A DNA stretch of 64,000 nucleotides from Bacteroidia bacterium (GTDB taxonomy: Bacteria; Bacteroidota; Bacteroidia; CAIKAF01). The stretch covers positions 23,776 through 87,775 of the forward strand of contig JAUHWY010000005.1 in the NCBI GenBank assembly GCA_030427255.1. The letters are read 5' to 3'. A program made the position numbers and the translations under genes. Under the pieces are notes generated by a model. That model searched no databases, was not told the DNA's origin, and saw only the letters and a program-made list of their open reading frames with translations. How positions within the stretch are numbered: the first letter of the stretch is position 1; each line of letters opens with the position of its first letter. Below are positions 14,842-53,065 of the stretch, one piece after another.

Positions 14842-14896
14842 CTAGAACCCAAGTTAGAATGTAGAAAGGAAGATTTTGATTAATTGTAAAACAAAT

Positions 14897-15379: not shown

Positions 15380-15547
15380 TTAGTGCTGTAATTCGTCGAC
15401 GATTATTTGCACCTGAGCTTCCTCTCCGGAGCGTATGGCATCGTTAGAACGTTGCTCCAAGGCACGGTATTCGTCCGGAGACATGGTTGGCTTAGCTGCG
15501 ATCAGCAAGTTCAACATCAAGGCGACTAAAATCCAAAAGCTGTCCAT
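15380..15547 (-). CDS. small membrane/secreted peptide paralogue 1, 55 aa (MDSFWILVALMLNLLIAAKPTMSPDEYRALEQRSNDAIRSGEEAQVQIIVDELQH)
   Basis: Translated by hand (shorter than the ORF-track cut-off). N-terminal hydrophobic segment. C-terminal tail conserved with the two neighbouring paralogues. Confidence 0.6.
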   Translation of the reverse strand: MDSFWILVALMLNLLIAAKPTMSPDEYRALEQRSNDAIRSGEEAQVQIIVDELQH

Positions 15548-15570
15548 GGTATGGTATTTTTAAAAGTTGG

Positions 15571-15738
15571 TTAATGCTGTAATTCGTCTACAATGATTTG
15601 CACCTGGGCTTCCTCTCCGGAGCGTATGGCATCGTTAGAACGCTGTTGTAGCGAGCGATACTCGTCGGGAGACATGGTTGGCTTGGCTGCGATTAGCAAG
15701 TTCAACATCAAGGCTACTAGAATCCAAAAGCTGTCCAT
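15571..15738 (-). CDS. small membrane/secreted peptide paralogue 2, 55 aa (MDSFWILVALMLNLLIAAKPTMSPDEYRSLQQRSNDAIRSGEEAQVQIIVDELQH)
   Basis: Translated by hand. About 90% identical to paralogue 1, including its upstream CTTTTAAAA(A)TAATACC region. Confidence 0.6.
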   Translation of the reverse strand: MDSFWILVALMLNLLIAAKPTMSPDEYRSLQQRSNDAIRSGEEAQVQIIVDELQH

Positions 15739-15758
15739 GAGGTATTATTTTAAAAGGA

Positions 15759-15965
15759 TTAGTGTTGAAGTTCGTCTACAATAATTTCCAACGCAACGGC
15801 GTCTTTTGCAGCAATGGCATGAGAGGCCTCAATCCTAGTAGATTGGAGACTATCGTTTCCGGATGTGCTTTGGCTGCCCGCAAGTAAATTGGACACCAAT
15901 ACGATTAATAGCGTTAAGGTTTGCATTGCGATTTGTTGAATTATTATTGATAAATTCTTGAGCAA
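15759..15965 (-). CDS. small membrane/secreted peptide paralogue 3, 68 aa (possibly 55 aa from internal M at 15926)
   Basis: ORF track. Hydrophobic N-terminus. Diverged middle. C-terminal ...AVALEIIVDELQH shares the IIVDELQH tail with paralogues 1 and 2. Confidence 0.55.
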   Translation of the reverse strand: MLKNLSIIIQQIAMQTLTLLIVLVSNLLAGSQSTSGNDSLQSTRIEASHAIAAKDAVALEIIVDELQH

Positions 15966-16038
15966 AGTTGAACCAAACTCAAATCTGCCGCAAAACCACT
16001 TTTTAAAAATTTGACATTACGAGAAAAAGGCCCTAAAT

Positions 16039-37489: not shown

Positions 37490-37517
37490 GATTCAGGGAT
37501 TCCTTACATTTGCAGCA

Positions 37518-38039
37518 ATGTTTCCTCATTTCGCTCAAGTGCCGACACCCATTTTGGAGAAAGCCGGCCGAATAAAACTCCTCATTACCGATTGCGACGG
37601 CGTACTCACCGATACCGGTGTGTATGTTGGTTCGGAAGGAGAGCTAATGAAGCGTTTCTCTATACGCGACGGCATGGGTGTGGAGCGTTTAAGAGAGCTG
37701 GTGGGAGTGGCATCGGGCATTATGACCGGAGAACAATCTCAAGCAGTGGCTCAAAGGGCAAAAAAACTTCAAATGCCGCATTTGTTTTTGGGTGCCAAAA
37801 ACAAGGGTGCATTGCTCAAAACCTTGCTGGAGCAAGAACAGCTGTCCCCTGAAGAGTTAGCCTACATTGGCGACGACACCAACGATTTAGAGGCCCTTAG
37901 CTTGGCAGGGCTCAGCTGCTGCCCCGGCGATGCCATGCCTATTGCCGCTGAAATTTCCGACTATCAATGCCTAACTCCCGGAGGGCAGGGAGCCTTTAGA
38001 GAGGTGGCAGAACTCATTATTTTCGCAAAACAACGTTGA
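37518..38039 (+). CDS. HAD-IIIA (KdsC-type) sugar-acid phosphate phosphatase
   Basis: LLITDCDGVLTD (DxDGVLTD) motif I. GDDTND motif. Start placed at MFPHFAQ. ORF overlaps the pepO end. Confidence 0.65.
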   Translation: MFPHFAQVPTPILEKAGRIKLLITDCDGVLTDTGVYVGSEGELMKRFSIRDGMGVERLRELVGVASGIMTGEQSQAVAQRAKKLQMPHLFLGAKNKGALLKTLLEQEQLSPEELAYIGDDTNDLEALSLAGLSCCPGDAMPIAAEISDYQCLTPGGQGAFREVAELIIFAKQR

Positions 38040-38944
38040 ATCAAAAACTTATGAAACCACGCGTGGTAAAAATTTCTAAAGATCGGTCCATAGGAGATGG
38101 GCAACCGTCCTACGTTATTGCCGAAATCGGCATCAATCATAATGGCGAAGTATCCATTGCCAAAAAACTCATTGATGCTGCCGTTGATGCCGGATGCGAT
38201 GCCGTTAAGTTTCAAAAGCGAACACCGGAAATTTGCGTTCCAAGAGACCAATGGGAAAAAGAAAGAGATACTCCTTGGGGCAAAATGACCTATATAGATT
38301 ATAAAAAGCGCATTGAATTCGAACGGGATGAATTTTCCGAAATCGACGCTTACTGTAAATCCAAAGGCATCGATTGGTTTGCTTCTTGTTGGGACGAGCC
38401 CTCAGTAGATTTCATGGAGCAATTTGAGCCGGTGATGTACAAAATGGCAAGTGCAAGCCTTACGGACCTGCCACTGTTGAGCAAGGTGCGGAGTACCGGT
38501 AGACCTTTAATGCTCAGCACGGGCATGAGTACCACCCACGAAATTGAGGTGGCAGTAAAGCATGTGGGTTTGGATAATCTAATGATTGCGCATTCTACCT
38601 CTGCCTATCCTTGCCCTCCTGAGGAGTTAAACCTACGCATGATCCACACCCTTATGGAGAAATACCCCGGTATTCCCATCGGGTATTCAGGACATGAAAC
38701 CGGCTTGGCTACCACCCAGGCTGCTGTGGCAATGGGCGCTTCGTTTGTAGAGCGTCACTTTACTTTAGATCGCGCCATGTGGGGCACCGACCATGCCGCA
38801 TCGGTAGAGCCTGCCGGAATGGCTCGTTTGGTACGCAACATTCGCGATATTGAACTTGCCATGGGAGATGGCGTTAAGAAGGTATACGATAGCGAAATTG
38901 AGCCAAGAAAGCGCTTACGTCGCGTGAGTCTCGACAACGAATAA
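38036..38944 (+). CDS. NeuB-family sialic/nonulosonic acid synthase-like protein (short, no C-terminal SAF domain)
   Basis: 302 aa. SYVIAEIGINHNG...AVKFQKR TIM-barrel N-terminal motifs of the NeuB/PseI/LegI family. Ends before the usual antifreeze-like SAF domain. Confidence 0.65.
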   Translation: MNQKLMKPRVVKISKDRSIGDGQPSYVIAEIGINHNGEVSIAKKLIDAAVDAGCDAVKFQKRTPEICVPRDQWEKERDTPWGKMTYIDYKKRIEFERDEFSEIDAYCKSKGIDWFASCWDEPSVDFMEQFEPVMYKMASASLTDLPLLSKVRSTGRPLMLSTGMSTTHEIEVAVKHVGLDNLMIAHSTSAYPCPPEELNLRMIHTLMEKYPGIPIGYSGHETGLATTQAAVAMGASFVERHFTLDRAMWGTDHAASVEPAGMARLVRNIRDIELAMGDGVKKVYDSEIEPRKRLRRVSLDNE

Positions 38945-38975
38945 ACTTATATAGCCATAGCGGCGTTACTAAGGC

Positions 38976-40010
38976 ATGTTGGAGAGCTTAAAGTCCATTG
39001 AGTGGAGCTTGGAACTCGTTGGCACCTTAATTATTATGGGTGCGGCCGTATTGTTTGTGGTATTGGAGCGCTTGTTTCCTTATACCAAAGGCATCAGTGT
39101 TTTTAGACGTGGAGCGTGGATTGATTTTGTTTGGTACACGCTTATTCAAAGTTTCTTTCTCAAGATTCTGATATTTGACTGGATTATTGCTCCTCTGGAG
39201 CATGCTACTGGCGTGGCTGAGAGCGGCTATATAAGCCATTGGCCGCTTTGGGCCATTGTGCTGTTTTTTGTGGTTACCCATGACTTTTATATTTATTGGT
39301 TTCACCGATTTCAACACAGCAACAAGTGGTTTTGGCGCACGCACGAAGCACACCATTCGGTAGAACACGTAGATTGGTTGGCCGGGTCCAGGTCTCATAT
39401 GGTAGAAATTCTCATCAATCAAACCATTGAGTTTTTGCCCATCTTTTTCCTTTTGGATGTGGAAACGGCAGCCATAGTGGTACCCATTAAAGCACTTATT
39501 GATGCGCTTTGGGGTCAGTTTATTCACGCCAATATTCGGGTAAAGCTGGGGACCTTGGGCTACTTAATCAATGGTCCTGAATTGCATCAATGGCACCATG
39601 CCGATCACCCGGAAGTGTACCATAAAAACTTTGGGACGAAGCTGGCCATTTGGGATTGGGTGTTTGGGACGGCTTATTTACCAAACCACCGGCCCCAACG
39701 CTTTGGGGTGTGGTACCGTTTTCCCAGAGGCTGGTTCGAGCAACACGTTTTTTCGGTGTACCGATTTCATGTAGGACAGTTTGAAAGCTCCCCTTTTGGC
39801 CATGCCCTAGTCAATTTACGCAACCGCATATTGAATGGTTTGGGTCGCCTATTTCCAAAAGCTGTGCGCAACTTTTTATTCCCTCATGGTCCTTTGGGCA
39901 GTGAAGAAGCTTTTGGTCCTAAACCGGAGCTTTTTGACCGAAAAGCCGGAGTAAAGCCTAATCGGGTTTCGTCGGTTGCCAAGGACAATACCTACCTTAG
40001 TCCCCAGTGA
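38976..40010 (+). CDS. sterol desaturase / fatty-acid hydroxylase family membrane protein
   Basis: Histidine boxes HDFYIYWFHRFQH and HEAHHS. Multiple TM helices. Confidence 0.7.
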   Translation: MLESLKSIEWSLELVGTLIIMGAAVLFVVLERLFPYTKGISVFRRGAWIDFVWYTLIQSFFLKILIFDWIIAPLEHATGVAESGYISHWPLWAIVLFFVVTHDFYIYWFHRFQHSNKWFWRTHEAHHSVEHVDWLAGSRSHMVEILINQTIEFLPIFFLLDVETAAIVVPIKALIDALWGQFIHANIRVKLGTLGYLINGPELHQWHHADHPEVYHKNFGTKLAIWDWVFGTAYLPNHRPQRFGVWYRFPRGWFEQHVFSVYRFHVGQFESSPFGHALVNLRNRILNGLGRLFPKAVRNFLFPHGPLGSEEAFGPKPELFDRKAGVKPNRVSSVAKDNTYLSPQ

Positions 40011-40441
40011 CTTTATCGGCGTTTTATATTGTAGTTGCTGCTTTGTTTCAAACCGGTTGGCTCTTGGCAACCAAAGCCTTAAACAAAGATGCGTTAAAGA
40101 ATGCCTTCCGATCCGGAACGCACCTTAAAGCACGTTGGCGCGGAATATGGCCCCCCTTGGCCTACTTAGGCACAGGCATTGGCAATATCGCCTTTTTGAC
40201 TTTATCTATGGAACATTTGCCGTCTTCGGTGGTATATGCCATGTGGACAGGGGTCGTTATGTTATTTGCAGCAGGAACAGACCGGTTATTATTCAACAAA
40301 CGGTTCAACCGCAAACAGTACATCTATTTAGCTATGGTATTGGCAGGAGCTGCCGGATTAAACTTTTTAAGCAAAAGCAATGGCGAAGAGGGTGTCAAAA
40401 AATTCCCTCAAGAAACTTCGCAATCCAACGTGCAACAGTAA
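40007..40441 (+). CDS. SMR/DMT-family small membrane transporter subunit A
   Basis: 4 TM helices. LPSSVVYAMWTGVVM resembles the SMR signature. 4-bp overlap with the preceding gene. Confidence 0.5.
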   Translation: MTLSAFYIVVAALFQTGWLLATKALNKDALKNAFRSGTHLKARWRGIWPPLAYLGTGIGNIAFLTLSMEHLPSSVVYAMWTGVVMLFAAGTDRLLFNKRFNRKQYIYLAMVLAGAAGLNFLSKSNGEEGVKKFPQETSQSNVQQ

Positions 40442-40442
40442 A

Positions 40443-40826
40443 ATGGCTTGGCTCTACCTTATATTGGCTTCGGTAATGGAAACGGCTTGGTTTATGTGCA
40501 TCCGAGCCTTGAGGGAGGTGGATTTTGGAGCCCTCAAGCAAGGGCGTATTGAAGATTTTGTAGGGGATGGTTGGGCCTTGGTGGCTTTGGTAGGATATGG
40601 AGTATTTGGTGTTTTGAATGCCTGGTTTTTATTTAAAGCCATGAAACACATTCCCTCTTCAACGGCTTTTGGGGTTTGGACCGGACTGGCACTAGCAGAA
40701 ATAACCTTGGTGGATGCATGGTGGCTAAATTTGCCACTTAGCCTTGGCCACTATGCTTGCATGGGCTTGCTCCTTTGGGGTGTTTTGGGGTTAAAACAAC
40801 AAGATAAAGCCGGCTCAGGTAACTAA
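40443..40826 (+). CDS. SMR/DMT-family small membrane transporter subunit B
   Basis: Start placed at MAWLYLILASVMETAWF (Glu at position 13, like EmrE E14). IPSSTAFGVWTGLAL motif. Paired with the preceding gene. Confidence 0.5.
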   Translation: MAWLYLILASVMETAWFMCIRALREVDFGALKQGRIEDFVGDGWALVALVGYGVFGVLNAWFLFKAMKHIPSSTAFGVWTGLALAEITLVDAWWLNLPLSLGHYACMGLLLWGVLGLKQQDKAGSGN

Positions 40827-40886
40827 AGTCACAGGGAGGCCGGGAAGTCGGCCAAAGCCCTTACATTTGTAAAAACCGCTTAGATT

Positions 40887-42515
40887 ATGTCTCTAGGATT
40901 TAGTCGGGTATATCCCGCATACAACGAACCCATTCATAGTTACGGCCCCGGAAGTGAGGAGCGTGCCAAACTGCAAGCCAAGTTAGAAGAGATGCGGCAG
41001 CAGCAGGTAGACGTTCCCATGTATATTGGGGGAAAGGAAATCCGCACAGGAAACAAAAAAGTACTTAGCTGTCCACACGACCACCAGCATGTGTTGGGTC
41101 ATTTCCATGAAGGAGATGCCGGCCATGTGCAACAGGCCATTGATGCAGCACTGGAAGCTCGTGAAAAATGGTCCAAGTTGCCTTGGGAAGACCGTGCATC
41201 GGTATTCCTAAAAGCAGCAGATCTGTTGGCCGGTCCCTACCGGGACGTGCTCAATGCTGCTACCATGTTAGGACAGTCCAAAAATGCCTTTCAAGCGGAA
41301 ATAGACAGCGCTTGCGAGCTTATTGATTTTTGGAGGTTTAATGTTTCCTACATGGAGGAAATATACAGCCAGCAGCCCAACAGCTCCAAAGGGGTTTGGA
41401 ATAGACTGGAGCAAAGGCCACTGGAAGGCTTTGTATTTGCACTTACTCCCTTTAATTTCACCGCAATTGCCGGAAATTTACCCACAGCTCCTGCCATGAT
41501 GGGTAATGTGGCTGTTTGGAAGCCCGCCAACAGCCAAATTTATGCCGCAAGAGTTATCATGGAAATCCTCATGGAGGCCGGCTTGCCTGACGGTGTAATT
41601 AATTTGATTTACGTTAGCGGTCCTGTGGCAGGCGATGTAATTTTTAACCACCGAGACTTTGCAGGTATCCACTTCACTGGCTCCACCGGAACCTTTCAAC
41701 ACATTTGGAAGACCATTGGCGCCAATATTGAAAAATACAGGAGCTATCCACGCATCGTAGGCGAAACCGGTGGAAAAGACTTTGTTTTTGCACACCCTTC
41801 GGCCAATGCCGATATCCTAATCACCGGTTTATCGCGTGGAGCTTTTGAATTCCAAGGACAAAAATGTTCCGCTGCATCGCGCGCATACATCCCCGAAAGC
41901 CTTTGGCCAACGGTAAAAGCCGGTTTGCTTCGCGATTTAGCAAGCTTTAAAATGGGGGGCACCGAAGACTTTAGCAATTTTATAAATGCGGTAATAGACG
42001 AAAAAGCATTTGATAGCATTACCGGATACATTGAGAAAGCGCGAGGTCTGTCTTCTAACGAAATCATTGCCGGAGGAGGTTACGACAAATCCAAAGGATA
42101 TTTTGTGGAGCCTACGGTTATCCTAACCAAAGACCCGCAGAGCATAACCATGGAAGAAGAGATTTTTGGTCCGGTGCTCACCGTATACGTATATCCGGAC
42201 CAAGAGGTAGAATCCACGCTTGACTTGGTCAATAGCACATCGCCCTATGCTTTAACAGGTGCTATTTTTGCCAAGGATAGGCATACCATTCAACACTTAA
42301 CCGAGCGCTTAAGAGATGCGGCCGGGAACTTCTATATCAACGACAAACCCACCGGTGCCGTGGTAGGACAACAGCCTTTTGGTGGAGCCAGAGCTTCCGG
42401 AACCAACGATAAGGCCGGTTCTATGATAAACCTTCTTCGCTGGGTAAGTCCAAGAACTATTAAAGAAACCTTTGTAGCACCCACAGACTACAGATATCCT
42501 TTCTTAGAAGAGTAA
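40887..42515 (+). CDS. pruA: L-glutamate gamma-semialdehyde (1-pyrroline-5-carboxylate) dehydrogenase
   Basis: 542 aa aldehyde dehydrogenase. VGETGGKDF. Catalytic FEFQGQKCSAASR. Confidence 0.88.
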   Translation: MSLGFSRVYPAYNEPIHSYGPGSEERAKLQAKLEEMRQQQVDVPMYIGGKEIRTGNKKVLSCPHDHQHVLGHFHEGDAGHVQQAIDAALEAREKWSKLPWEDRASVFLKAADLLAGPYRDVLNAATMLGQSKNAFQAEIDSACELIDFWRFNVSYMEEIYSQQPNSSKGVWNRLEQRPLEGFVFALTPFNFTAIAGNLPTAPAMMGNVAVWKPANSQIYAARVIMEILMEAGLPDGVINLIYVSGPVAGDVIFNHRDFAGIHFTGSTGTFQHIWKTIGANIEKYRSYPRIVGETGGKDFVFAHPSANADILITGLSRGAFEFQGQKCSAASRAYIPESLWPTVKAGLLRDLASFKMGGTEDFSNFINAVIDEKAFDSITGYIEKARGLSSNEIIAGGGYDKSKGYFVEPTVILTKDPQSITMEEEIFGPVLTVYVYPDQEVESTLDLVNSTSPYALTGAIFAKDRHTIQHLTERLRDAAGNFYINDKPTGAVVGQQPFGGARASGTNDKAGSMINLLRWVSPRTIKETFVAPTDYRYPFLEE

Positions 42516-42574
42516 TGCTGTTTATTTGAACAATGAAAAAGACCTACCTAGTGTGGGTCTTTTTTTTTTGCACA

Positions 42575-42890
42575 ACAATGCTCATTCACCATTCATCATT
42601 TACCACTCATCATTCATCACTTTCCATTCATCATTCATCATTCACCATTTATCATTCATCATTCCGGCCCGGATGCTGTGAAAAGCCCGGAAAACCAAGC
42701 CTTAGGGCAGTGTGGGAAGCGGAGGCGGAGCGCAGCAAGCCCCCGCAAGCCCCACTGCCCTTAGGCTTGGTTTGAGGACTTGAAGCAAGCAGCCGGAAAT
42801 GCCGGCCAAAAACCATTCTTCACCATCCCTCCCTTCATCATTTATCATTCATCATTTATCATTCATCATTCACCATTCATTTTTCCCGCT
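42575..42890. repeat. composite repeat: CATCATT-type minisatellite fragments flanking GC-rich hairpin element copy D
   Basis: 42665-42810 is near-identical to 35200-35350 and has a perfect 18-bp stem (ccaagccttagggcagtg/cactgcccttaggcttgg). Flanked on both sides by tcatcattcaccatttatcattcatcatt-type repeats. Confidence 0.85.
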
Positions 42891-42962
42891 TTCCAACCCT
42901 AGCTGTTAACAACAATATGGAAGCATTATTCATAAAAAAGCTGCTATGCGTATTTTTATGGG

Positions 42963-43274
42963 GTGAAAAAGATGGCATGGATAAAGCACCCTTGGCTAAG
43001 GAACCGATATGTTTGGACCGGTTTGGCCTTTGTTGTGTACATGTTGTTTTTTGACAGCAACCATTTACTTAGTCTCTACGATCTTAAATCCAGGCAAGAG
43101 GCCTTGAAAAAGGATGAACTTTGGTACAGGGAAAAAATTGAGGATATTCAGCGCAAGCTTAAAGAACTCAACAGCAACGAAGATCAATTAGAAAAGTTTG
43201 CGCGAGAAAGCTACCAAATGAAACGCGACGACGAAGAGGTTTTTGTTTTGGTAGACAGAAGCACCTTGGAGTAA
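42963..43274 (+). CDS. septum formation initiator (FtsB/DivIC-like) family protein
   Basis: 103 aa. Single N-terminal TM helix followed by a coiled-coil (LKSRQEALKKDELWYREKIEDIQRKLKELN). Confidence 0.65.
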   Translation: MKKMAWIKHPWLRNRYVWTGLAFVVYMLFFDSNHLLSLYDLKSRQEALKKDELWYREKIEDIQRKLKELNSNEDQLEKFARESYQMKRDDEEVFVLVDRSTLE

Positions 43275-44078
43275 TCAGCGTATGATTTGAGCATTTTCGA
43301 AGTGGTACTTTCCGTTTGAGCTTGACCAAACAACGGCAATAAAGCGAAGGCTTCCGGAAGCCCATTTCGAGTCTTTTGCAATGGTTAGGTCAAGTTTAAA
43401 GCTTTGTCCCCTATTGCCATTATCGGGACTAACTTCAAAGCCAAACGCATTACTTCCTCCGGCAGCACGCAACACATAAAGGTGCGTATGATTGGGTCCA
43501 ATTCCTTCTTGAGGTGAGGACACCTGATCTTGAACAACCCAAACATTAGCTAAAAGTGTCCCCTCCACTTCTTCATGTAAATATCCTCGCAGGGTAAACG
43601 AAAGCTCTTCTCCTTCGTCTTGGTTTCGAACTCCCTGCATGCCAATTCTGGCGGTTCGGTCAGATTCGGTACTTATGGCTTCCGAAAGCTCTGCTGCGGT
43701 ATTTAGACCGGAGGAGTTGGCTACAGCAAATGAGGGAATGGATTGCACGTTGAGGCCGGACTGCAAATTAACCCCTGCAGCACTAAACAAACTATCTTGG
43801 CTTAAAGCATATACGGCTACAGGAATATATCCGTCAGCTTGGTTGGCATAAGATTGAAAAATGGGAAAAGAAAAGGTGCCGCAAGAAGCACAATTAGAAG
43901 CAGTAAAGAAGAAAAGGGGGAACATACGGCTTTGGTCAGGATAACTGCAGCTTCCATCGTCTTCTCCTGCGTTTGGGTCATAGCTTATGGAGTTCGGGTC
44001 AGTGCAGCCCTTTTCCTCTCCACAGCCGGGAGCTAGCATACTTAATCCAAAAACAAACCAAACCAAGTATTTCACCAT
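43275..44078 (-). CDS. hypothetical lipoprotein
   Basis: Start placed at MVKYLVWFVFGLSMLAPGCGE (lipobox). The longer ORF extends to 44162. Confidence 0.4.
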   Translation of the reverse strand: MVKYLVWFVFGLSMLAPGCGEEKGCTDPNSISYDPNAGEDDGSCSYPDQSRMFPLFFFTASNCASCGTFSFPIFQSYANQADGYIPVAVYALSQDSLFSAAGVNLQSGLNVQSIPSFAVANSSGLNTAAELSEAISTESDRTARIGMQGVRNQDEGEELSFTLRGYLHEEVEGTLLANVWVVQDQVSSPQEGIGPNHTHLYVLRAAGGSNAFGFEVSPDNGNRGQSFKLDLTIAKDSKWASGSLRFIAVVWSSSNGKYHFENAQIIR

Positions 44079-44197
44079 TATTACAATATACAATTTCCAT
44101 TCAAAATATAAGGCTCTATAAAGGATTTTTCTTTTCAAAAAAACCTGCAAAGGGGAGCTCATTATGCCCGCATCTAATAAAACCTGTATATTCGCTT

Positions 44198-45754
44198 ATG
44201 CCTCCTAAGCAACGTATGCCGTGGCCCAAGCTTTTGGTTGGAACGCTTTACTTGTTGGCCATTGGCTTTGCTGCGCTTCATTTTGAGCCCGGCATATATG
44301 CCTCCAATCTATTGGCCGGTTTATCCGATGGGCTTCCTTTAGGTGACCTTATCAAAAAGTCCGGAGAAGAAGGTACCGGCTTTTTGTGGGTCTTGCTTCT
44401 TTTTCTGCTTAAAAGCTTGGGACTAACCATTCATGGCATCCTTTATGTTCAGGCTTTTCTTGCACTTATTTTTGGTTGGGTAATTCTAAAGAAACAAAAA
44501 CCGGGACTTTTTCAGCAAACCCTACTTCTATGCAGCCCGGGTGTTTTGATTTACTGGGCTTGGCTCAGCCCCTTACCCTTATTGGGCTTGGCTTGGACTG
44601 CCGGTTTTTACTTTTGGCGCAAATCGCCGGGCTTGAGCATTCTTGCTTTAGCCTTTGCCGCCGGCCTTTCGTTTATAGGCGCTTTGGCCTCGGGAATGGT
44701 TATGCTCTTGCTCATGGCAGATTACTTTATTGGACTAAGTGCTGGTAAAACCAAGCCCTTTACCTATGGCCTAGGTTTTCTTTCCATAGCGGCTTTTGTT
44801 TGGGTTAGTGTTTCTGTAATTCTTTTGAGTCCAAATTACAACCACGAGCAGCTAAGTGCTATGAATCAAGGGCATTTAATCTATGGCCTTAAGCAATTGG
44901 CCAACGGCATATACCCAATGGCCATGCCCGAAGTAGGTTTCGATATTGTATGGATGCAACCCAACCTAAACCTTTTTTTCATTCTCTCTTTAATTCTTCT
45001 TATTCCCCTAAGCATTATTGAGTGTAAAGGAAAGATATTTGCCCTTTTGGCTGTTGGTGGCACGCTACTTCTTTCTCTTTTTCTGTCTCCCTATATTGCT
45101 TACAGTCAAATGCCTGAACGCGCATCTGCCTTATCTGTTTTTTGGATTTGTGCTATACTTTGGCAAGATTCTGCCCAACCCTTGTTGGGAAAAACAAAAG
45201 CTTGGTGGCAATGGCTCGAAAACAAAAGCCGGATTTTTCGCTATGCACTTTTAGCTCCACTCGCATTTTCAGGAATTTGGTTAAGCTATAATGCCGCTAA
45301 AACAACGTATAGCCCAGCCAAGGAATTATCGGCTTGGGTGCAAGACAGGTCCAATGCAAAACAAACCGTAATGGTTTGGCCTCAGCAGCATGCCTCCTTG
45401 TTAGCCGTAAGGTTGAATCGACCGGTTTGGTCACCCGGACGAGGCAATCTTATTTGGCACCGAGACCCACATCGACAACCTGCGGACATACCAGAAGAAG
45501 AACTCTTGAAGCGGCTTAATGCCGATCCTAAAATTCAAGAAGAGGAGGGCTGCCTCTTAATTACCCAAGTTTTACTTAACGAGCATCAGGTAGACGCAGG
45601 TGGCATCGTCTATGCCGACCAAAGCATTTACATACGGTATTTGAGGAATTGGGCCTATGGAAAAGGTCTCCAAGAAACGCTCTATGCGGCCTATTCGGTG
45701 CAACCCAATCCAGGAGGCTACATTAAATACAGAGAGCCTGCCTCCGGTCGTTAA
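44198..45754 (+). CDS. polytopic membrane protein of unknown function (possible glycan/polymerase-type)
   Basis: At least 10 predicted TM helices. Start placed at MPPKQRMPWPKLL. The upstream part of the ORF overlaps the preceding gene. Confidence 0.45.
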   Translation: MPPKQRMPWPKLLVGTLYLLAIGFAALHFEPGIYASNLLAGLSDGLPLGDLIKKSGEEGTGFLWVLLLFLLKSLGLTIHGILYVQAFLALIFGWVILKKQKPGLFQQTLLLCSPGVLIYWAWLSPLPLLGLAWTAGFYFWRKSPGLSILALAFAAGLSFIGALASGMVMLLLMADYFIGLSAGKTKPFTYGLGFLSIAAFVWVSVSVILLSPNYNHEQLSAMNQGHLIYGLKQLANGIYPMAMPEVGFDIVWMQPNLNLFFILSLILLIPLSIIECKGKIFALLAVGGTLLLSLFLSPYIAYSQMPERASALSVFWICAILWQDSAQPLLGKTKAWWQWLENKSRIFRYALLAPLAFSGIWLSYNAAKTTYSPAKELSAWVQDRSNAKQTVMVWPQQHASLLAVRLNRPVWSPGRGNLIWHRDPHRQPADIPEEELLKRLNADPKIQEEEGCLLITQVLLNEHQVDAGGIVYADQSIYIRYLRNWAYGKGLQETLYAAYSVQPNPGGYIKYREPASGR

Positions 45755-45817
45755 CGACAGGTAAAGCCCGATTAAGGCATATACCTAAACCGAATCAAGG
45801 CCTGCACCTATTTTTGG

Positions 45818-47104
45818 CTACCAAGAAATAATGACCTGCCCGTGTCCGGTTTGAAAGCCGGGGGTATTGGTTTGGTTGGTGCCGCTGTTGTAGGAACCGC
45901 CCCCACCACCACCGTAATAATAAGTGGTACCGCCGGCGCCACCACCTGAGTATCCTCCTCCGGCACCTGCCGCATGACCTGCGTTACCGCAGCAATTGGC
46001 ACCGCCGCCGCCACCGCCGCCATAGCCGCCATTTCCTCCATAGTTTGTTGCATTCTTCCCGCCCGGGTTTTGGACAATAGAAAGCCAGCCCTTACCACCT
46101 GCACTTCCTCCGAATCCGTCTTGGCCGTTTGACCCTCCAGGGGCATCATTGAACTGATCATGGCTACGTGAACCGCCGCCGGTATTGGTAGTAACTCCAT
46201 CTTTGCCATAATAATGTGGCGCTCCATTATTGGTTAGTGAAGAGGCTCCACCTCCTCCGGCTGCAATCAGCGGCTGTGCCGTTTGCCCCTGCACCCAAAC
46301 AAAGCTGCCGCCGCCGCCGCCGCCACCGCCATTGGCTGTGTTTCCGCTTGTAGCATCGTTGCCCTTTTGACCCACAATAATTTGCAAGACTTGGCCGCCC
46401 TGGACATTAAAGGTTCCCTGCATGCGGGCACCTTGGCCACCCAAATCTTGAGAAACCAAGCCAAAATTATCGCCTCCTTGTGCTCCACGGCAATCTATAG
46501 AAATGCTACTGACACAGGCAGGAACAGTCCAATTTTGGATACTCCCTGTGTAATTGAAGGTTTGACTTCCCGAGGGGCAATTGATTATCGTAAAGCTCAA
46601 GCTGGAGGAGTCACTACAGCCTTGGGAATCAGTTACCACTAGACTTACTTGATAGGTTCCGGTTTGGGTCCAAGTAACCGAAGGGTTGGCCGAAGAAGAG
46701 GATGCCGGCGTTCCCGAAGCAAAAGTCCAGGCATAGGAAGCCGCTCCGGGAACGGATTGAAAACTTACCGAACTATTGACACTGCCTTGACTAACTCCGG
46801 GAGTAATCGTGGGGTCTGGTGTGGTGTTGCAATTGCAGGCTACGGCTCTCCATCCTGTAGGGAAATAGGTTTCTTGGCACTCCGTGTCGGTATTGTAAAT
46901 TTGCAAGCCCCGAGTTGGGTTGGCAATGGCATTGCGCTGTGCACTGGTAAGCCGCGGTAAAAGCAGTCCTCCTTGTGTACTTCTAACTTCCAACATAGCA
47001 TCTGAACTGGGTTGTCCGGGCGTATCACTAATTAATACCCCTTGAGCAAACCCTTGGCTTGCAAACAGCAAAAGAGCAATCCCTAAAAATCTGTCAATCA
47101 ACAT
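45818..47104 (-). CDS. secreted protein: conserved N-terminal module + PKD-like domain + C-terminal glycine-rich (ALK-like Gly_rich) domain
   Basis: 428 aa. AQGVLISDTPGQPSSDAMLEVRSTQGGLLLPRLTSAQRNAIANPTRGLQIYN...AVACNC. ...WTVPACVSSISIDCRGAQGG...IIVGQKG...LIAAGGGG...GHGQVIISW. Confidence 0.75.
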   Translation of the reverse strand: MLIDRFLGIALLLFASQGFAQGVLISDTPGQPSSDAMLEVRSTQGGLLLPRLTSAQRNAIANPTRGLQIYNTDTECQETYFPTGWRAVACNCNTTPDPTITPGVSQGSVNSSVSFQSVPGAASYAWTFASGTPASSSSANPSVTWTQTGTYQVSLVVTDSQGCSDSSSLSFTIINCPSGSQTFNYTGSIQNWTVPACVSSISIDCRGAQGGDNFGLVSQDLGGQGARMQGTFNVQGGQVLQIIVGQKGNDATSGNTANGGGGGGGGSFVWVQGQTAQPLIAAGGGGASSLTNNGAPHYYGKDGVTTNTGGGSRSHDQFNDAPGGSNGQDGFGGSAGGKGWLSIVQNPGGKNATNYGGNGGYGGGGGGGANCCGNAGHAAGAGGGYSGGGAGGTTYYYGGGGGGSYNSGTNQTNTPGFQTGHGQVIISW

Positions 47105-47105
47105 A

Positions 47106-48443
47106 TTACCAGCTTATTATCACTTCTCCATTTCCCTGACGATTGCCAGGGCTTACTTGTCCGTTACTTACGCCTCCAATATAGGCTGAGCCGCCACCGC
47201 CGCCGCCGCCGTTACCTTCGGAACTTCCTCCGGCACCGCCGTACCAGCCGCCTCCGCCTCCGCCGCCATCGCCATAGGAGCTGTGGTTGCCACCGTTTCC
47301 TCCTTGACCAAAGGTGCCGGCTGTCCCAGGGTTTGTGGCCCCGGTGGCAGGTTGACCGCCGCCGCTATTACCTCCTGCACTTCCACCACCCCCGCAAAAT
47401 CCGGGAGTAGTCCAACAGTTATGGCTTTGGCCGGGTCTGCCGCCACCCAAACTCCAAGCAGCATTTCCGGGGGTTCCTCCACAACAAGATCCGGAATTAG
47501 CACCACCGGCAGTTCCCTGGCCTCCTCCGTGTCCGCCATCTCCTCCATAGGAGTTTACGTCGTTGTAGGTGTCTCCACCACCGCCGCCGCCGCCGCCGGC
47601 CACAATAACTCTATCGTTTAAGCTTTGTCCCCCTTGACGTACATCAGAAGCGCCGCCGCCGTTTCCGGAATTGGAAGTACCGTTCCCTCCACCATTCCAC
47701 CCGTTTTGACCACCCACATAAACATGGAGGGTTTCTCCCGGAGTTACCGACAGGTCACCAATGGAAGTCCCTCCCGGACCTCCGACACCAAAGTCCTGTC
47801 CTACTCCGTTTGCTCCCTGGGCACCTCGGGCCGTTATTTGTATAGAAGTAACGCAAGCAGGCACAACAAAGCTTTGGGCGGCACCCGTAAAGCTAAAGGT
47901 TTGACTACCCGAGGGAGGACAGGCACTGACAACCAAAGACTGGCTGCTTGAATCGCTGCAACCTTGGGCGTCAGTAACCACTAGATGCACTTGATACGTT
48001 CCTGCTTGAGCATAGTTTGCAGTTGCATTTTGGCCCGATCCGGTAGCAGGTGTCCCCCCTTGAAAAGTCCATTGGTAGTTTTGCGCTCCGGAGGTGGCCG
48101 CAAAGCTTACCGTACTATTGATGCTTGCCGGAGATGGACTTATAGTAAAAGAAGGGTTTGGATAACTTTGGCAATTGCACTTTACGGCTCTCCAACCACC
48201 GGGAAAATACGTATCGACACAAGAAGAACTAAGATTATAAATTGTAAGTCCGGCTGTTGGATTCACAATAGCATCGCGTTGGGTTTGCGTCAATCTGGGA
48301 AGTAGCAAGCCTCCGTTGGTGCTTCGTACTTCGAGCATGGCATCAGGATTCGGTTGCCCCGGAGTATCACTGATTAACACGCCTTGAGCTAAGCCTAGAG
48401 CATAAAAATTAAACGCTAAAATCAGACAAAATAAAGACTTCAT
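47106..48443 (-). CDS. secreted protein: conserved N-terminal module + PKD-like domain + C-terminal glycine-rich (ALK-like Gly_rich) domain
   Basis: Start placed at MKSLFCLILAFNFYALGLAQG. ...FVVPACVTSIQITARGAQG...VYVGGQNG...VIVAGGGGGGGG...GNGEVIISW. Abuts the 45818 gene with a 1-bp spacer. Confidence 0.75.
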   Translation of the reverse strand: MKSLFCLILAFNFYALGLAQGVLISDTPGQPNPDAMLEVRSTNGGLLLPRLTQTQRDAIVNPTAGLTIYNLSSSCVDTYFPGGWRAVKCNCQSYPNPSFTISPSPASINSTVSFAATSGAQNYQWTFQGGTPATGSGQNATANYAQAGTYQVHLVVTDAQGCSDSSSQSLVVSACPPSGSQTFSFTGAAQSFVVPACVTSIQITARGAQGANGVGQDFGVGGPGGTSIGDLSVTPGETLHVYVGGQNGWNGGGNGTSNSGNGGGASDVRQGGQSLNDRVIVAGGGGGGGGDTYNDVNSYGGDGGHGGGQGTAGGANSGSCCGGTPGNAAWSLGGGRPGQSHNCWTTPGFCGGGGSAGGNSGGGQPATGATNPGTAGTFGQGGNGGNHSSYGDGGGGGGGWYGGAGGSSEGNGGGGGGGSAYIGGVSNGQVSPGNRQGNGEVIISW

Positions 48444-48519
48444 GGGCTGTTGGTTTGGGAGCAAGTTACTGCAGAGCAAGACCAATGGCAAGAATAAATA
48501 TGAAAAATACCAAAGTTTT

Positions 48520-48672
48520 CTTCCGCCCCGGATGGCAGCGATACCCCGGCGCAGCGGTTTGGGTTGCCCTTGCAAAGCTTGCCGCGGCCCAGAGGGACCC
48601 GGCAAGCAATGCTAGGGCCCCAAACCGGAAGCCGTGTAAAGCGAACAGCCGGAATTGGCGGCCAAAAACTTC
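48520..48672. repeat. GC-rich hairpin-forming intergenic element, diverged copy E
   Basis: cttccgccccggatggcagcg ... ccggtttggg/cccaaaccgg and cttgccg/cggcaag stems ... gaacagccggaattggcggccaaaaact. Same start and end architecture as copies C and D. Confidence 0.6.
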
Positions 48673-48697
48673 CTTAACTTCGCTTTAAAATAATCAC

Positions 48698-50203
48698 ATG
48701 CGGTTTCTACCTCTTCTTTTTGTTCTTCTTTTTTCATTTTCTGCATTACACGCTCAGGGTGTTTTAATTAGCGACACGCCGGGTCAGGCGGACCCCTCTG
48801 CCGGGCTGGAAGCGCGTTTTTCGCAAAAGGGATTTTTAATGCCCAGGCTCACCACCGTTCAACGCAATGCCATAGCCAATCCTGCTATTGGTCTACAAAT
48901 TGTGAATTTAACCACCGAATGTGTGGAGGTGTATTTTTCAACAGGATGGACTCCTGTAGCTTGCGCCTGCACGGCCCCTCCCTCGATTCCCAGCTCCATT
49001 CAAGTGCCTACCGCTTGCCCCGGAGATACTCAGGTGGTGTTTCGCGTCAATCCCGTACCCGGAGCCGCTTCGTATCAATGGACAACTCCTCAAGGCCTGC
49101 AAATAGTGGCGGGTCAGGGCAGCGATACCTTAGTGGTGTCGGTATCGGGTAGTGGAGCGACAGGGCAAGTGCAAGTAAGTGCTCAAAACGGTTGCGGGAG
49201 TTCCTCCCCCTTAGCGGTAGCCTTTGCTTTTCAAGGCCCCGGAGCAGGTTTCGGACCTTTATCCGGCGCGATTGGAAATCCTGTGAATTTTAACGCCACC
49301 AGCAATACGGCCATTAGCTATCAGTGGCAATTTCAGAGCGGCACCCCGGCCAATTCCAACCTAGCCGGCCCTAGCGTATTATGGAGCAATACCGGCAACT
49401 ACCAAGTAATTCTTCAAACTACCGACGCCAATGGTTGCAGCTCCATAGACACCCAAAGCGTGAGCATTACCAATTGCCCTCCGGGCAGCCAGACCTTTAG
49501 CTTTACCGGAGGTATACAAAGCTTTACGGTTCCCAATTGTGTGGGCAGCATTACCATTCAAGCATCCGGGGCACAAGGTGGCGCAAATCAAAATGGAGAC
49601 GCGGGAGGCTTAGGTGCCATACTACAAGGAGACTTCATAGTTTCCGGAGGAGAGGTGCTTCAGGTTTTGGTAGGTGGCAAAGGCCAAGATGGAATTAGTC
49701 AATCGTATTTCAGGTCCGGAGGCGGTGGCGGCGGATCCTTTGTTTGGAGGCAAAATGGAAATCAGCTGCTGATTGCGGCAGGAGGTGGAGGTGGAAGAGA
49801 CGTAGGAGGGTCTACCGATCAAATAGATGCAAGCTCAGGCACTACAGGTCAGCCCGGGGCCTTTCCTTCGGCATCGGCAGGAAATGGCGGCACTGGGGGC
49901 AGCAGCTTTAATGGAAATGATGGCGGCGGAGGCGCTGGCTGGAACAGCAATGGCACCGGTACCGGCCCCGGAATACGGCCGCTAAGTGGAGGCCAAGGCG
50001 GCAGCAACAACCGCAATGGCGGTTTTGGCGGTGGCGGGGGCGCTACCAATGCAGGAGGCGGAGGAGGAGGCTACAGCGGTGGCAGTTGTGGACAAAACAG
50101 CTCCTTAAGCGCAGGCGGCGGCGGCTCCTTTAACGGAGGAACCAACCAACAAAATACAGGTGGACAGCACAGCGGAGATGGCCAAATCACCATCAGCTGG
50201 TAA
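48698..50203 (+). CDS. secreted protein: conserved N-terminal module + PKD-like domains + C-terminal glycine-rich (ALK-like Gly_rich) domain
   Basis: 501 aa. AQGVLISDTPGQADPSAGLEARFSQKGFLMPRLTTVQRNAIANPAIGLQIVN. ...FTVPNCVGSITIQASGAQGG...VLVGGKG...LIAAGGGGG...GDGQITISW. Confidence 0.75.
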   Translation: MRFLPLLFVLLFSFSALHAQGVLISDTPGQADPSAGLEARFSQKGFLMPRLTTVQRNAIANPAIGLQIVNLTTECVEVYFSTGWTPVACACTAPPSIPSSIQVPTACPGDTQVVFRVNPVPGAASYQWTTPQGLQIVAGQGSDTLVVSVSGSGATGQVQVSAQNGCGSSSPLAVAFAFQGPGAGFGPLSGAIGNPVNFNATSNTAISYQWQFQSGTPANSNLAGPSVLWSNTGNYQVILQTTDANGCSSIDTQSVSITNCPPGSQTFSFTGGIQSFTVPNCVGSITIQASGAQGGANQNGDAGGLGAILQGDFIVSGGEVLQVLVGGKGQDGISQSYFRSGGGGGGSFVWRQNGNQLLIAAGGGGGRDVGGSTDQIDASSGTTGQPGAFPSASAGNGGTGGSSFNGNDGGGGAGWNSNGTGTGPGIRPLSGGQGGSNNRNGGFGGGGGATNAGGGGGGYSGGSCGQNSSLSAGGGGSFNGGTNQQNTGGQHSGDGQITISW

Positions 50204-51958
50204 TCAGGGACGTATAATTTTTGCCCTTCCCTGATCGGTTTCAATGATGTATACCCCGGGGGCTTCTCCTCCCATTTGAGGCAAAGAAGTTGCTGTATGG
50301 CCCACTTGAACTTGCTGACCCAGTAGGTTGTAAAGCGTCCATCTGCCGGACACACCGGGCAGCTGCAAGGCTCCGGAACAAGGATTGGGCATTGGAGTCC
50401 AATGGCTAGAAACGGAGCTTAGACCTAAGCTTGGAGGTGGAGTGGCCTCCGCATCTGAACAAACGGCTCCAAAGCCTTCGGCAAAACGCCAAGCTGCCGG
50501 AATGTCTAGCTCATCGAGTTCTTGTGGATAACCCTGACTTGGAAAACTTTGTTGGGGAGCCCAATAGGGCGGTGCTCCCGACAAATAGAGTGAGGCTTCA
50601 GGAATCTGCTCCGTTCCCGGCGGCGTACAGTTGCCTAGCACATTGTTTCCTTTAAAAGTATGGCCTTGGCCTTGAATGGACCATTGCCCATAAAACACAT
50701 TGCCATTGGTCACTTCATTGCCAATAAAATGCTGCTGGTCGGTCACCGGAGTTCCATTGGAAACAAAAACCCCAAAGCCGTTCACCCGATTCCTAAAAAA
50801 CACATTGTCGGGCCCACCGGGACCCCAGTAATGGTCCACCATAATCATTTCCACCTCGTTGGATTCAAACAAATTCGCAAAAGGATAATGCCCATGCACA
50901 CTAATGTCTGCGGAATAGTCGCTAATTGGCTCAGCACGAAGCACCTCCACCGAGTGGTTGTAGCCAAACACATTGCCGTTGGCACCGTATTTTACCATCA
51001 TGGCATGCCGCAGGCGTCTAAAGCGGTTGTTTTCTACCAAACAAAGGGTGGAATGGTTATTTATGGTTACTCCATATCCGCGCGTGCCCGAACCGGTAAA
51101 CTCATAGGCATCATGCAAATAACTGTGGCGAATGGTTAAATGAGTGCTTATATCGGCAATGATATGCGAACCAAGGCTCTTTTCGCTTTCCACGCCTTCT
51201 ACCAAACAGTCGGCGGCCATACTAAATCGAATATGGTAGCCGGTGGCAGAGCCGGGTTGATCCACACGCTCCAGCTTTAAGCATTGAATCCGAACCCCCG
51301 TGCGCATACGCAAGGGACGAGCCTCAGGCTGCAAACCGGAGTCGGGTGCGTAACGAAAGCCCTCTTCTAAAAACACGGTATCTCCGGACACTTGAACTAT
51401 CTTACTCACATGTCCTACGGCCTTTTGTGCCCAAGAGGCCGGATTAGAGTCCCATGCACCATTTTCTTGACGAATTTCGGCATACCTGCCGGGCCTAAAA
51501 CCGGTAGTATCGGCCACCAAAAACCAAGCTTGACGGGCCTGAGGCATGGCTGACAAAGGCCTGAAGTTGCCGGCTCCACTTCCTCCAATGGTCAAAAAAG
51601 ACTGCCCACCTCCCTGTGGATCAAACAACAATCGGCTTTGAGGGCCCTTCCCTTCCAAAATCAAACTGTCCGGAAAGCCTATGGAACCCTTGAAACGATA
51701 ATCTCCTGAATCAAGAACTATGCGTAAAGGTCTCCCCTCCAAACTATCCGGAATATTCGCCCAGGCCGTATCGTTAAACGTTTGGCCATCGCCAACGCCT
51801 CCTAAATCAGCAAAGCGAAGGGTAAGGGTGCCGGTTGTATCCCAAAGGCGCGCTCCCGCTAAGTTCCAGTCCCATTGGTGCAAAGGATTTAGGCTTTGTG
51901 CCTGCGCAAATGAACCAAGACTAAGGAGAGCAAGAAAACTGCAAAAGGGTTTAATCAT
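50204..51958 (-). CDS. right-handed beta-helix (pectate-lyase-like) protein with T9SS C-terminal sorting domain
   Basis: 584 aa with signal peptide. Repeated NN/GN beta-helix rungs (VENNRF, GYNHS, FRNRVNG, IGNEVTNGNV). C-terminus ...WTLYNLLGQQV...GVYIIETDQGRAKII. Confidence 0.65.
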   Translation of the reverse strand: MIKPFCSFLALLSLGSFAQAQSLNPLHQWDWNLAGARLWDTTGTLTLRFADLGGVGDGQTFNDTAWANIPDSLEGRPLRIVLDSGDYRFKGSIGFPDSLILEGKGPQSRLLFDPQGGGQSFLTIGGSGAGNFRPLSAMPQARQAWFLVADTTGFRPGRYAEIRQENGAWDSNPASWAQKAVGHVSKIVQVSGDTVFLEEGFRYAPDSGLQPEARPLRMRTGVRIQCLKLERVDQPGSATGYHIRFSMAADCLVEGVESEKSLGSHIIADISTHLTIRHSYLHDAYEFTGSGTRGYGVTINNHSTLCLVENNRFRRLRHAMMVKYGANGNVFGYNHSVEVLRAEPISDYSADISVHGHYPFANLFESNEVEMIMVDHYWGPGGPDNVFFRNRVNGFGVFVSNGTPVTDQQHFIGNEVTNGNVFYGQWSIQGQGHTFKGNNVLGNCTPPGTEQIPEASLYLSGAPPYWAPQQSFPSQGYPQELDELDIPAAWRFAEGFGAVCSDAEATPPPSLGLSSVSSHWTPMPNPCSGALQLPGVSGRWTLYNLLGQQVQVGHTATSLPQMGGEAPGVYIIETDQGRAKIIRP

Positions 51959-52015
51959 GGCTAAAAATTAAAAAAAACAGGAAAATACGGTGGCATTTTT
52001 GCTTAATTTCCCCTC

Positions 52016-53065
52016 ATGAAACATCTTTTTCGGTGGATTTTCCGCTTAATTCTTCTAGTGCTGCTTCTTTTTGCAGGCTTTCTAGGCTATTTGAGCATAA
52101 CCGACTACCGCCCCGAAGCCCGAGAGGCCGCAACCGTCCAAGGCCAAAGCGCCGAACGAACTTTTGCCACCGGCGACACCCTAAGTCTGCTCATTTGGAA
52201 TATTGGCTACGCAGGCCTGGGTGCAGAAATGGACTTTTTCTTTGATGGGGGGAGCCGAGTACGCCCCGAAAAAGAAGAAAATAGCCGATACCTCCAGGGA
52301 ATCACAACCTTTTTAGCCCAACAGAGCTCCACCGACTTTGTGCTCCTCCAAGAAGTGGATAGGAATTCTAAACGCAGCTACCATACCGACCAAGTGGTGC
52401 CCATTAGTCAGGCTTTGCCCAAGCACAATTACAGCTTTGCCCTTAATTACAAAACAGCCTTTGTGCCTCAACCGCTTACCGAGCCCTACGGAAAAGTGGT
52501 AGGCGGCTTGCTCAGTTTGTCGCGCACCCAACCCGTTCAAAGCACACGCTACCGACTCAAAGCCGACGCCGATTGGCCAATGGGACTTTTTATGCTCGAT
52601 CGATGCTTCTTAACTCAGCGGTTCCCCATGGACTCCAGCAAAGAACTTGTGGTGGTTAACTTACACCTTTCCGCTTATGACGACGGCGGCGTAAAGCAAA
52701 ACCAAATGGACAGCCTAGCCGCCTTTCTGCACAAAGAAGAGGAACAAGGAAATGTGGTGCTTTTGGGTGGCGATTGGAACCAAATTGCACCCGACAAACC
52801 CCTACCTAAACCAATGGAAAATGCGCCGGTGACGGTACAACAGGCGCCCAAAGAATTCCCCAACGCCAACTGGCAGTGGGCTGTCCCCGAGCAAAGCACC
52901 AACCGCTGGCTGCTTGGGCCCTATCAGCAAGGAACAACCCAAGAAGCCTGCATCGATTATTTTTTGGTTTCACCGGGAGTTCGGGTGCTGCAAACCAAAC
53001 GCTTGAACTTGAACTTTGCCTATTCAGACCATGAACCGGTTTGGATGCAACTTATTCTTCCTTAG
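52016..53065 (+). CDS. endonuclease/exonuclease/phosphatase (EEP) family protein, membrane-anchored
   Basis: N-terminal TM helix. LLIWNIGYAG ... LLQEVD ... NLHLSAYDDGG ... SDHEPV motifs. Confidence 0.75.
   Translation: MKHLFRWIFRLILLVLLLFAGFLGYLSITDYRPEAREAATVQGQSAERTFATGDTLSLLIWNIGYAGLGAEMDFFFDGGSRVRPEKEENSRYLQGITTFLAQQSSTDFVLLQEVDRNSKRSYHTDQVVPISQALPKHNYSFALNYKTAFVPQPLTEPYGKVVGGLLSLSRTQPVQSTRYRLKADADWPMGLFMLDRCFLTQRFPMDSSKELVVVNLHLSAYDDGGVKQNQMDSLAAFLHKEEEQGNVVLLGGDWNQIAPDKPLPKPMENAPVTVQQAPKEFPNANWQWAVPEQSTNRWLLGPYQQGTTQEACIDYFLVSPGVRVLQTKRLNLNFAYSDHEPVWMQLILP

Follow-up and report, generated by a model that had tools for sequence, protein, structure and literature searches.

Paralogous Bacteroidota proteins with a PTL_trimer module and a glycine-rich domain of the ALK/LTK family

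The ligands of the metazoan receptor kinases ALK and LTK are the helical cytokines ALKAL1/2, which to our knowledge are absent from bacteria. In these receptors, the TNF-like/glycine-rich (TG) region (7NX1, 7NWZ, 7LRZ, 7N00) lies beside an EGF-like domain. Here we describe a domain of the same Pfam family, with the same fold and the same sequence landmarks, in the products of four paralogous genes (g1 to g4) of a Bacteroidia bacterium, all located in a stretch of 64,000 nucleotides (hereafter the window) of contig JAUHWY010000005.1. A fifth copy belongs to a 1049-aa protein encoded in the same window, called here the HYR protein after its other domains. In g1-g4, the domain is carried by a small and putatively exported protein, in which it follows a fibre-type module and a PKD domain. 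Its loops differ from those of ALK/LTK, and a TM-score of about 0.5 corresponds to a substantial divergence.

Other described systems resemble these proteins in one part or another. In phages, glycine-rich virion and tail-fibre proteins share the fold and the sequence family of the C-terminal domains of g1-g4, on fibre-like chains that often contain collagen or immunoglobulin (Ig) domains; unlike the window proteins, they are virion components without signal peptides. The tip protein gp38 of Salmonella phage S16 (PDB 6F45) displays variable receptor-binding loops on a polyglycine-II scaffold at the distal end of the fibre (bioRxiv 10.1101/2023.11.25.568672). Its working principle is like the one proposed below for g1-g4, but gp38 belongs to another fold family, absent from the Foldseek matches of g1; the likeness is an analogy and no homology is claimed. 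As for the N-terminal module, the trimer domains found at the N-terminus of phage tail fibres and tailspikes, DUF2793 (JBD30 baseplate protein, 8RK3 chain a) included, and the trimerisation domains of collagens XV and XVIII (3N3F, 9BNB) are small modules of beta structure, about 50-70 aa long, that bring three chains together, the role that we propose for PTL_trimer. The similarity of PTL_trimer to all these domains remains below proof of homology, and the window module differs by its place behind a signal peptide, in a protein of the cell. Finally, ficolins, collectins and C1q have a comparable layout, again without any claim of homology, in which a stalk connects an oligomerisation element at the N-terminus to a recognition head at the C-terminus. 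Fibrinogen-C and collagen domains are also fused to relatives of the N-module, and gC1q adopts a TNF-like sandwich, as do the C-terminal domains of the window. The window proteins lack the collagen stalk, however, and are only presumed to be trimeric.

An ALK/LTK-family domain at the C-terminus

The open reading frames (ORFs) and the common architecture of the four genes, as reported in a first-pass annotation of the window, were borne out by ORF calling, Pfam and alignment. The products of g1-g4 all consist of a signal peptide, an N-module of about 73 aa, one or more PKD/Ig domains and a C-terminal glycine-rich domain, and align end to end over their full length with 44-53% pairwise identity. 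The ATG start of g2, giving 445 aa, is also the start retained in an independent gene call on a public contig. When a hidden Markov model (HMM) of the N-module was run against the six-frame translation, exactly four copies were found in the window. Another HMM, built from the four C-terminal domains, recovered a fifth glycine-rich copy at residues 59-322 of the HYR protein (87.7 bits, E = 3.5e-26), whose first 338 aa are 41% identical to the paralogues; both the fourth full copy and this fifth domain had been announced by the annotation. The PKD-like Ig domains that it had also claimed score above the Pfam threshold in all four paralogues (PF00801 and PF18911 tested), with an additional PKD_6 Ig domain in g3 (72.8 bits), and collagenase PKD structures match the AlphaFold2 model of g1 with a target TM-score of 0.73-0.82 (Foldseek). 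Among the five proteins, four HYR domains and a Por_Secre_tail/TIGR04183 domain, the C-terminal sorting domain of the type IX secretion system (T9SS), are restricted to the 1049-aa protein (34.1 and 33.2 bits for the sorting domain). The statement that the four paralogues lack such a domain thus stands, no match being obtained in Pfam or NCBIfam at E values up to 0.1.

The annotation had further guessed that the C-terminal domain was related to ALK and to PF12810, and this guess holds at the levels of Pfam, of a PDB profile search and of fold. With a gathering threshold of 24.5 bits for PF12810 (ALK_LTK_GRD), two of the five copies lie above the cut-off (g1 with 31.8 bits, g4 with 79 bits), g2 falls short of it with 16.6 bits and the HYR protein with 18.5 bits, and g3 has no match. 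The five domains are 41-51% identical to each other across the domain. Given this paralogy and the HMM match of the HYR protein reported above, g2, g3 and the HYR protein are therefore also members of PF12810. When a profile of the five domains was compared with all PDB sequences, nothing but ALK and LTK was retrieved (E = 9.4e-14 and 3.4e-9, respectively), in an alignment covering profile positions 13-259, i.e. the whole domain. The landmarks GiQxWxVP, GAxGG, GGGGGG-x-fV, liiAaGGGG, GGfGGGGG, GGGGGY-GG and GHGeV-I are common to the window domains and to ALK/LTK. Moreover, ALK/LTK structures rank first in the AlphaFold and Foldseek comparison, which was run on g1. The model, obtained from 121 homologues, has a mean pLDDT of 92.5, and its best 21 PDB matches are all ALK/LTK ligand-binding fragments (E from 3.4e-11, for 7nx1, to 8e-7; 20-27% identity; target TM-score of about 0.5), the PKD domains ranking after them. 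Beta strands are found at residues 180-282 and 409-427 of the model, and the region in between (283-408) is confidently modelled but almost devoid of regular secondary structure. Polyglycine-II helices interwoven with a TNF-like sandwich would be expected to look like this, a geometry that the model suggests. By sequence and by fold, the C-terminal domain of the window proteins belongs to PF12810 together with ALK and LTK.

The domain is not confined to the four-part architecture of g1-g4. Without the N-module, it occurs in HYR/T9SS proteins of Bacteroidota and in cysteine-rich-repeat proteins of myxobacteria. A fold search of the BFVD models showed that the ALK-type glycine-rich fold is frequent in predicted viral proteins, automatically named "receptor protein-tyrosine kinase" or "glycine-rich domain-containing protein", and that its carriers include virion structural, tail-fibre, tail-collar and collagen-repeat proteins. 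The domain also matches PHROGs 7388, 22713, 1589 and 5811, for which no function is given, and a tblastn search against GenBank phages returned no match, probably owing to the low-complexity filter. Across 121 members of the family, conservation is concentrated in blocks formed by the Gly tracts and by the strands of the TNF-like fold, and substitutions and indels cluster in loops at residues 211-220, 251-260, 291-320, 331-360, 371-380 and 391-400 of g1.

Two subtypes of the domain seem to be present in the window, one shared by g1, g3 and the HYR protein (GGGGGGSFVW...L(I/L)AAGGGG) and the other by g2 and g4 (GGGASD(V/I)R...LNDR(V/I)IVAGGGGG). This grouping conflicts with that of the N-modules, in which g1, g2 and g3 are set apart from g4; the mismatch hints at domain shuffling between paralogues.

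The PTL_trimer module and its partners

The N-terminal module, which had been left unrecognised, is catalogued in Pfam as PF26696 (PTL_trimer), a very large family. Precomputed matches to this model exist on the exact products of g1, g2 and g3 (E at most 1e-5, first domain along the chain) and on 98 homologues. PF26696 belongs to a newer Pfam release; an older copy, without this model, gave no match. For the g4 product, an exact-sequence look-up returned no record; its module is 42% identical in alignment with the other three. In pairwise comparisons, the modules of g1-g3 share 58-75% identity with each other and 39-44% with that of g4; the module is the best conserved part of these proteins, although its description as conserved "almost residue-for-residue" was overstated. 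Its cysteines Cys76, Cys90 and Cys92 (g1 numbering) are conserved in 99, 86 and 99% of the family, respectively; Cys163 and Cys176 are conserved too, conservation ranging from 86 to 99% over the module cysteines and these two. Such cysteines fit an extracytoplasmic location.

With E ≤ 1e-3, a profile of the four modules retrieved 47,855 representative clusters, and the stricter limit of 1e-10 left 20,940. Exactly three tandem copies were counted in 91 of the best 150 clusters, and up to nine in others. All 98 homologues with the window architecture possess exactly one module, right after the signal peptide (median start at residue 21). Among the relatives, the partner domains are Fib_succ_major, fibrinogen-C, COLFI, Lcl_C, the collagen triple helix, Peptidase_S74, the phage tail collar and PKD/Ig domains; five of them are elements of obligate trimers, namely the triple helix of collagen, Peptidase_S74 (a fibre chaperone), the phage tail collar, fibrinogen-C and COLFI. 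A complete natural protein with three module copies is predicted as one compact body (AlphaFold2; pLDDT 91.9, pTM 0.87). Sub-threshold matches to DUF2793 (PF10983) were obtained for the C-terminal hairpin of the module.

Several individual relatives were also recorded. PTL_trimer flanks a collagen triple helix on both sides in one of them (P0383), three copies precede the Peptidase_S74 chaperone in another (P0352) and a fibrinogen-C/COLFI head in a third (P0302), and two copies precede a phage tail-collar domain (P0378). In proteins with three copies, the short 'TxxQRxAI' helix is regularly missing from the middle one.

On viral contigs, 16 loci with the module were located. Several of the six viral carriers sampled are tail-fibre or tail-spike proteins; one matches phrog_7121 (E = 7e-32) and carries Peptidase_S74, others match minor-tail or tail-fibre PHROGs, and three of the six have no PHROG match. 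The module lies close to the N-terminus in some viral carriers and at the C-terminal tip in others. In GenBank phages, only three weak matches were found by tblastn, and the one annotated region consists entirely of 'hypothetical' entries. As regards the acronym PTL, our guess is "phage tail-like", which would fit; a literature search on it yielded nothing relevant beyond papers on 'phage tail-like bacteriocin'.

Ancient paralogues, their proposed organisation and competing explanations

Identity at the third codon position between the paralogues is 23-47%, near saturation, which shows that these genes are ancient. For the N-modules alone it is 24-38%, which rules out gene conversion as the process keeping the modules alike. 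Two contigs, one of which belongs to "MAG: Flavobacteriales bacterium isolate M30B58" (a metagenome-assembled genome), are syntenic with the window for more than 20 kb at 84-95% nucleotide identity, and the three-gene cluster g1-g3 is present on both. Between orthologues on these contigs, the ratio of nonsynonymous to synonymous substitution rates (dN/dS) is 0.01-0.07 for the N-module (0.01-0.03 in g1), 0.06-0.21 for the PKD/Ig domains and 0.02-0.07 for the glycine-rich domain. No indel was observed outside the signal peptide, where a single 1-aa gap occurs; this peptide is the least conserved part of g1 between orthologues. Each paralogue is thus under strong purifying selection in every domain. 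These data exclude pseudogenes or low-complexity artefacts and lead us to reject ongoing diversifying selection. The "diversifying family" of the first-pass annotation is therefore replaced by old paralogues maintained by purifying selection. Their differences, confined to loops, fit fixed and distinct specificities rather than ongoing diversification.

On balance, we are inclined to regard g1-g4 as four stable paralogues of ancient divergence, from a family widespread in Bacteroidota whose members would be exported, fibre-like and probably homotrimeric binding proteins. Read from the sequence, the N-termini of g1-g4 have a basic or short n-region, a hydrophobic core and Ala-Gln at the junction with the module, which we take to be the "Q-rule" pattern of signal peptidase I in Bacteroidota. 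Export would start with this signal peptide, of the signal-peptidase-I type with Gln at the cleavage junction. The single PTL_trimer module would then join three chains, by default as homotrimers, and form the base of the molecule, with one or two PKD/Ig domains serving as a spacer between its ends. The C-terminal ALK/LTK-type TNF-like sandwich, with its polyglycine-II bundle, would be the distal ligand-binding head, in which a rigid scaffold of Gly tracts and beta strands may present loops that differ in sequence and length from one paralogue to another. These loop sets would confer four distinct specificities, or five with the HYR protein. We infer trimerisation from the fusion partners of the module and from its copy-number pattern. 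The assignment of the head, its distal position and its binding function is suggested by three features: the domain and the T9SS anchor occupy opposite ends of the HYR protein, phage fibres carry the same glycine-rich fold, and variation is confined to loops between scaffold blocks. T9SS cargo attaches to the cell through its C-terminus. Export beyond the periplasm is likewise presumed.

Several points weigh against this organisation. With Pfam and NCBIfam at E values up to 0.1, g1-g4 showed neither a T9SS domain nor a lipobox, nor any other signal known to direct proteins to the surface, and the periplasm would therefore be the default end point of these proteins. The TNF-like/glycine-rich domain of ALK itself is not trimeric. 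No solved PDB structure matches the N-module, searches with a single protein and with a 44-sequence profile giving chance-level matches, and the position of the module at the C-terminal tip of some phage proteins means that it could be a binding knob instead of a base. In addition, neither the window nor the loci of distant homologues showed conserved neighbour genes pointing to a pathway, and no publication on a bacterial member was found in the literature on PF26696, ALK_LTK_GRD and PF12810 in bacteria.

Alternative explanations were weighed on the same evidence. It is rather unlikely that g1-g4 are monomers, in which the N-module would be an envelope-anchoring, sorting or partner-docking domain holding a single PKD plus glycine-rich arm, e.g. 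through attachment to a component of the outer membrane or of the periplasm. The invariable position of the module right after the signal peptide, the particle-attachment function of its weak relatives (N-terminal domains of phage tailspikes, DUF2793 fibre domain), the lack of any other targeting signal in g1-g4 and the fact that the ALK glycine-rich domain functions untrimerised would all suit such an anchor. However, those phage attachment domains are themselves trimeric, and the fusion of the module to collagen and to the Peptidase_S74 chaperone indicates self-association in threes, as do the predominance of triplets among multi-copy proteins and the compact body predicted for the three-copy protein. 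An obligate heterotrimer, in which g1, g2 and g3 would be the three chains of a C1q A/B/C-like molecule, each with a TNF-like head, appears quite improbable. It would account for the presence of exactly three clustered single-module paralogues, g2 and g1 lying 1 nt apart and g3 being divergent, for the conservation of this cluster on two related contigs and for the closer similarity of the g1-g3 modules to each other than to that of g4. Nevertheless, homologues elsewhere are solitary rather than always co-occurring, g4 stands alone 22 kb away, and the synteny is limited to close relatives. We hold equally little belief in its extension, namely a g1-g3 heterotrimer offering a composite three-head surface and, more broadly, an ALK/LTK region descended from a bacterial or phage trimeric fibre head.

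Since both the N-module and the glycine-rich fold are present in phage tail-fibre and virion proteins, g1-g4 could also be viewed as the remnant of a prophage or tailocin tail fibre instead of cellular proteins, which is highly unlikely. The neighbouring genes are housekeeping or unrelated (pyruvate kinase, CysS, IF-2, NusA, an M13 peptidase, an aldehyde dehydrogenase, GcvP and kynureninase). Genes for capsid, tail, baseplate or integrase proteins are absent from the neighbours of the cluster. Moreover, virion fibres have no need of Sec signal peptides, synteny of this chromosomal region and purifying selection are observed in related genomes, and the module is nearly absent from GenBank phages. 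A prophage origin was rejected on this gene context, which contains no phage gene cluster. Lastly, we give hardly any credit to a polyglycine-II bundle acting through a flat surface, in an ice-binding, antifreeze or matrix role comparable with that played by the antifreeze protein from snow fleas. Polyglycine-II bundles do include antifreeze proteins (PMC13243192; bioRxiv 10.1101/2023.11.25.568672), but the domain matches ALK/LTK, with a bundle inside a TNF-like sandwich, and not the two-layer antifreeze type; variation restricted to loops fits recognition, and the context is not evidently cold-related.

Gene organisation, surroundings and significance

The coordinates of the genes and of their domains are given in Table 1. 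The upstream gene g2 shares its strand with g1 and is separated from it by 1 nt, so that these two genes are probably co-transcribed; g3 is divergent from g2. In three homologues that are more distant, the gene is solitary and its neighbours are unrelated; the family therefore functions as a stand-alone gene, the cluster of three being a local arrangement. The architecture is common in databases, with 660 matches at E ≤ 1e-3 among the candidates scored.

Table 1. Positions of the four paralogues, of the HYR protein and of their domains in the window
Feature	Coordinates	Strand	Length or residues	Description	Evidence
g1	45818-47104	-	428 aa	Signal peptide, PTL_trimer, PKD, ALK/LTK-like TNF-like/glycine-rich domain	ORF, Pfam, AlphaFold2, Foldseek
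g1 signal peptide	47045-47104	-	aa 1-20	Ends ...GFA/QG	Sequence reading; AlphaFold2 helix at residues 2-15
g1 N-module	46826-47044	-	aa 21-93	PF26696 PTL_trimer; Cys76, Cys90, Cys92	Precomputed Pfam, module HMM
g1 PKD domain	46580-46825	-	aa 94-175		PKD_4 42.3 bits, PKD 34 bits; PKD structures among Foldseek matches
g1 glycine-rich domain	45821-46579	-	aa 176-428	TNF-like + polyglycine, ALK/LTK-like	PF12810, Foldseek, PDB profile
g2	47106-48443	-	445 aa
g2 N-module	48162-48380	-
g2 PKD domain	47916-48161	-
g2 glycine-rich domain	47109-47915	-
g3	48698-50203	+	501 aa
g3 N-module	48755-48973	+
g3 PKD_6 Ig + PKD	48974-49474	+
g3 glycine-rich domain	49475-50200	+
g4	22134-23618	+	494 aa
g4 N-module	~22188-22418	+
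g4 Ig + PKD	22419-22883	+
g4 glycine-rich domain	22884-23615	+
HYR protein	10836-13985	+	1049 aa	Signal peptide, glycine-rich domain, HYR x4, T9SS C-terminal sorting domain
HYR protein glycine-rich domain	11010-11801	+	aa 59-322

Around the cluster, the gene at 50204-51958 (-), which converges on g3 and directly adjoins the g3 stop codon, encodes a 584-aa exported protein with a weak match to a right-handed beta-helix (E = 0.0015) and, by eye, a T9SS-like C-terminal tail. A 518-aa polytopic membrane protein without Pfam match is encoded at 44198-45754 (+). In public assemblies, contig 27153 of Logan ERR3428543 carries a solitary gene for a 430-aa PTL_trimer + PKD + Gly_rich_2 protein (P0005), 47% identical to g1, in a sample that also contains an exact copy of g1; this protein could represent a fifth paralogue, encoded in the genome that carries g1, or stem from a different organism. 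Contig CAZJFM010000052.1, binned as 'Candidatus Competibacteraceae' (Gammaproteobacteria), shows 87-95% nucleotide identity with positions 35512-52359 of the window over 16 kb and was probably mis-binned in its co-assembly.

Elsewhere in the window, a tandem hairpin array was noticed at 14390-14512, with four to five copies of the unit CCTGACGCTTCGGTCAGGATTAGAAA (period 26 nt), inside an ORF-poor stretch of 2 kb (13986-16038) that also holds a lone hairpin copy at 14220-14237. No Rfam match was found in the whole window at gathering thresholds. At 15362-15965 (-), three direct copies of a repeat about 190 nt long encode small ORFs, three in tandem, of which two are nearly identical (15380-15547 and 15571-15738, 55 aa each) and the third is longer (15759-15965, 68 aa). 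With a hydrophobic N-terminus and the common C-terminal ...IIVDELQH, they look like a family of small paralogous peptides or membrane proteins.

Since Pfam already lists both PF12810 and PF26696 and databases contain many proteins of this architecture, g1-g4 constitute a well-defined target and no new kind of system. PTL_trimer counts among the larger uncharacterised modules of Bacteroidota, with tens of thousands of clusters and no solved structure; its trimerisation, if true, would account for how thousands of proteins with fibrinogen-like, collagen-like, Fib_succ_major and Lcl_C heads are laid out. The other of these two unstudied modules is common to a human oncogenic receptor. The glycine-rich region of ALK/LTK, an oddity among animal receptors, appears here as a common and strongly conserved domain, the putative head of bacterial proteins. 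It is found on two chassis in a single genome, g1-g4 and the HYR protein, as well as on phage fibres, and these bacterial proteins would offer a tractable system in which to study the ligands of polyglycine scaffolds and the specificity of their loop sets.

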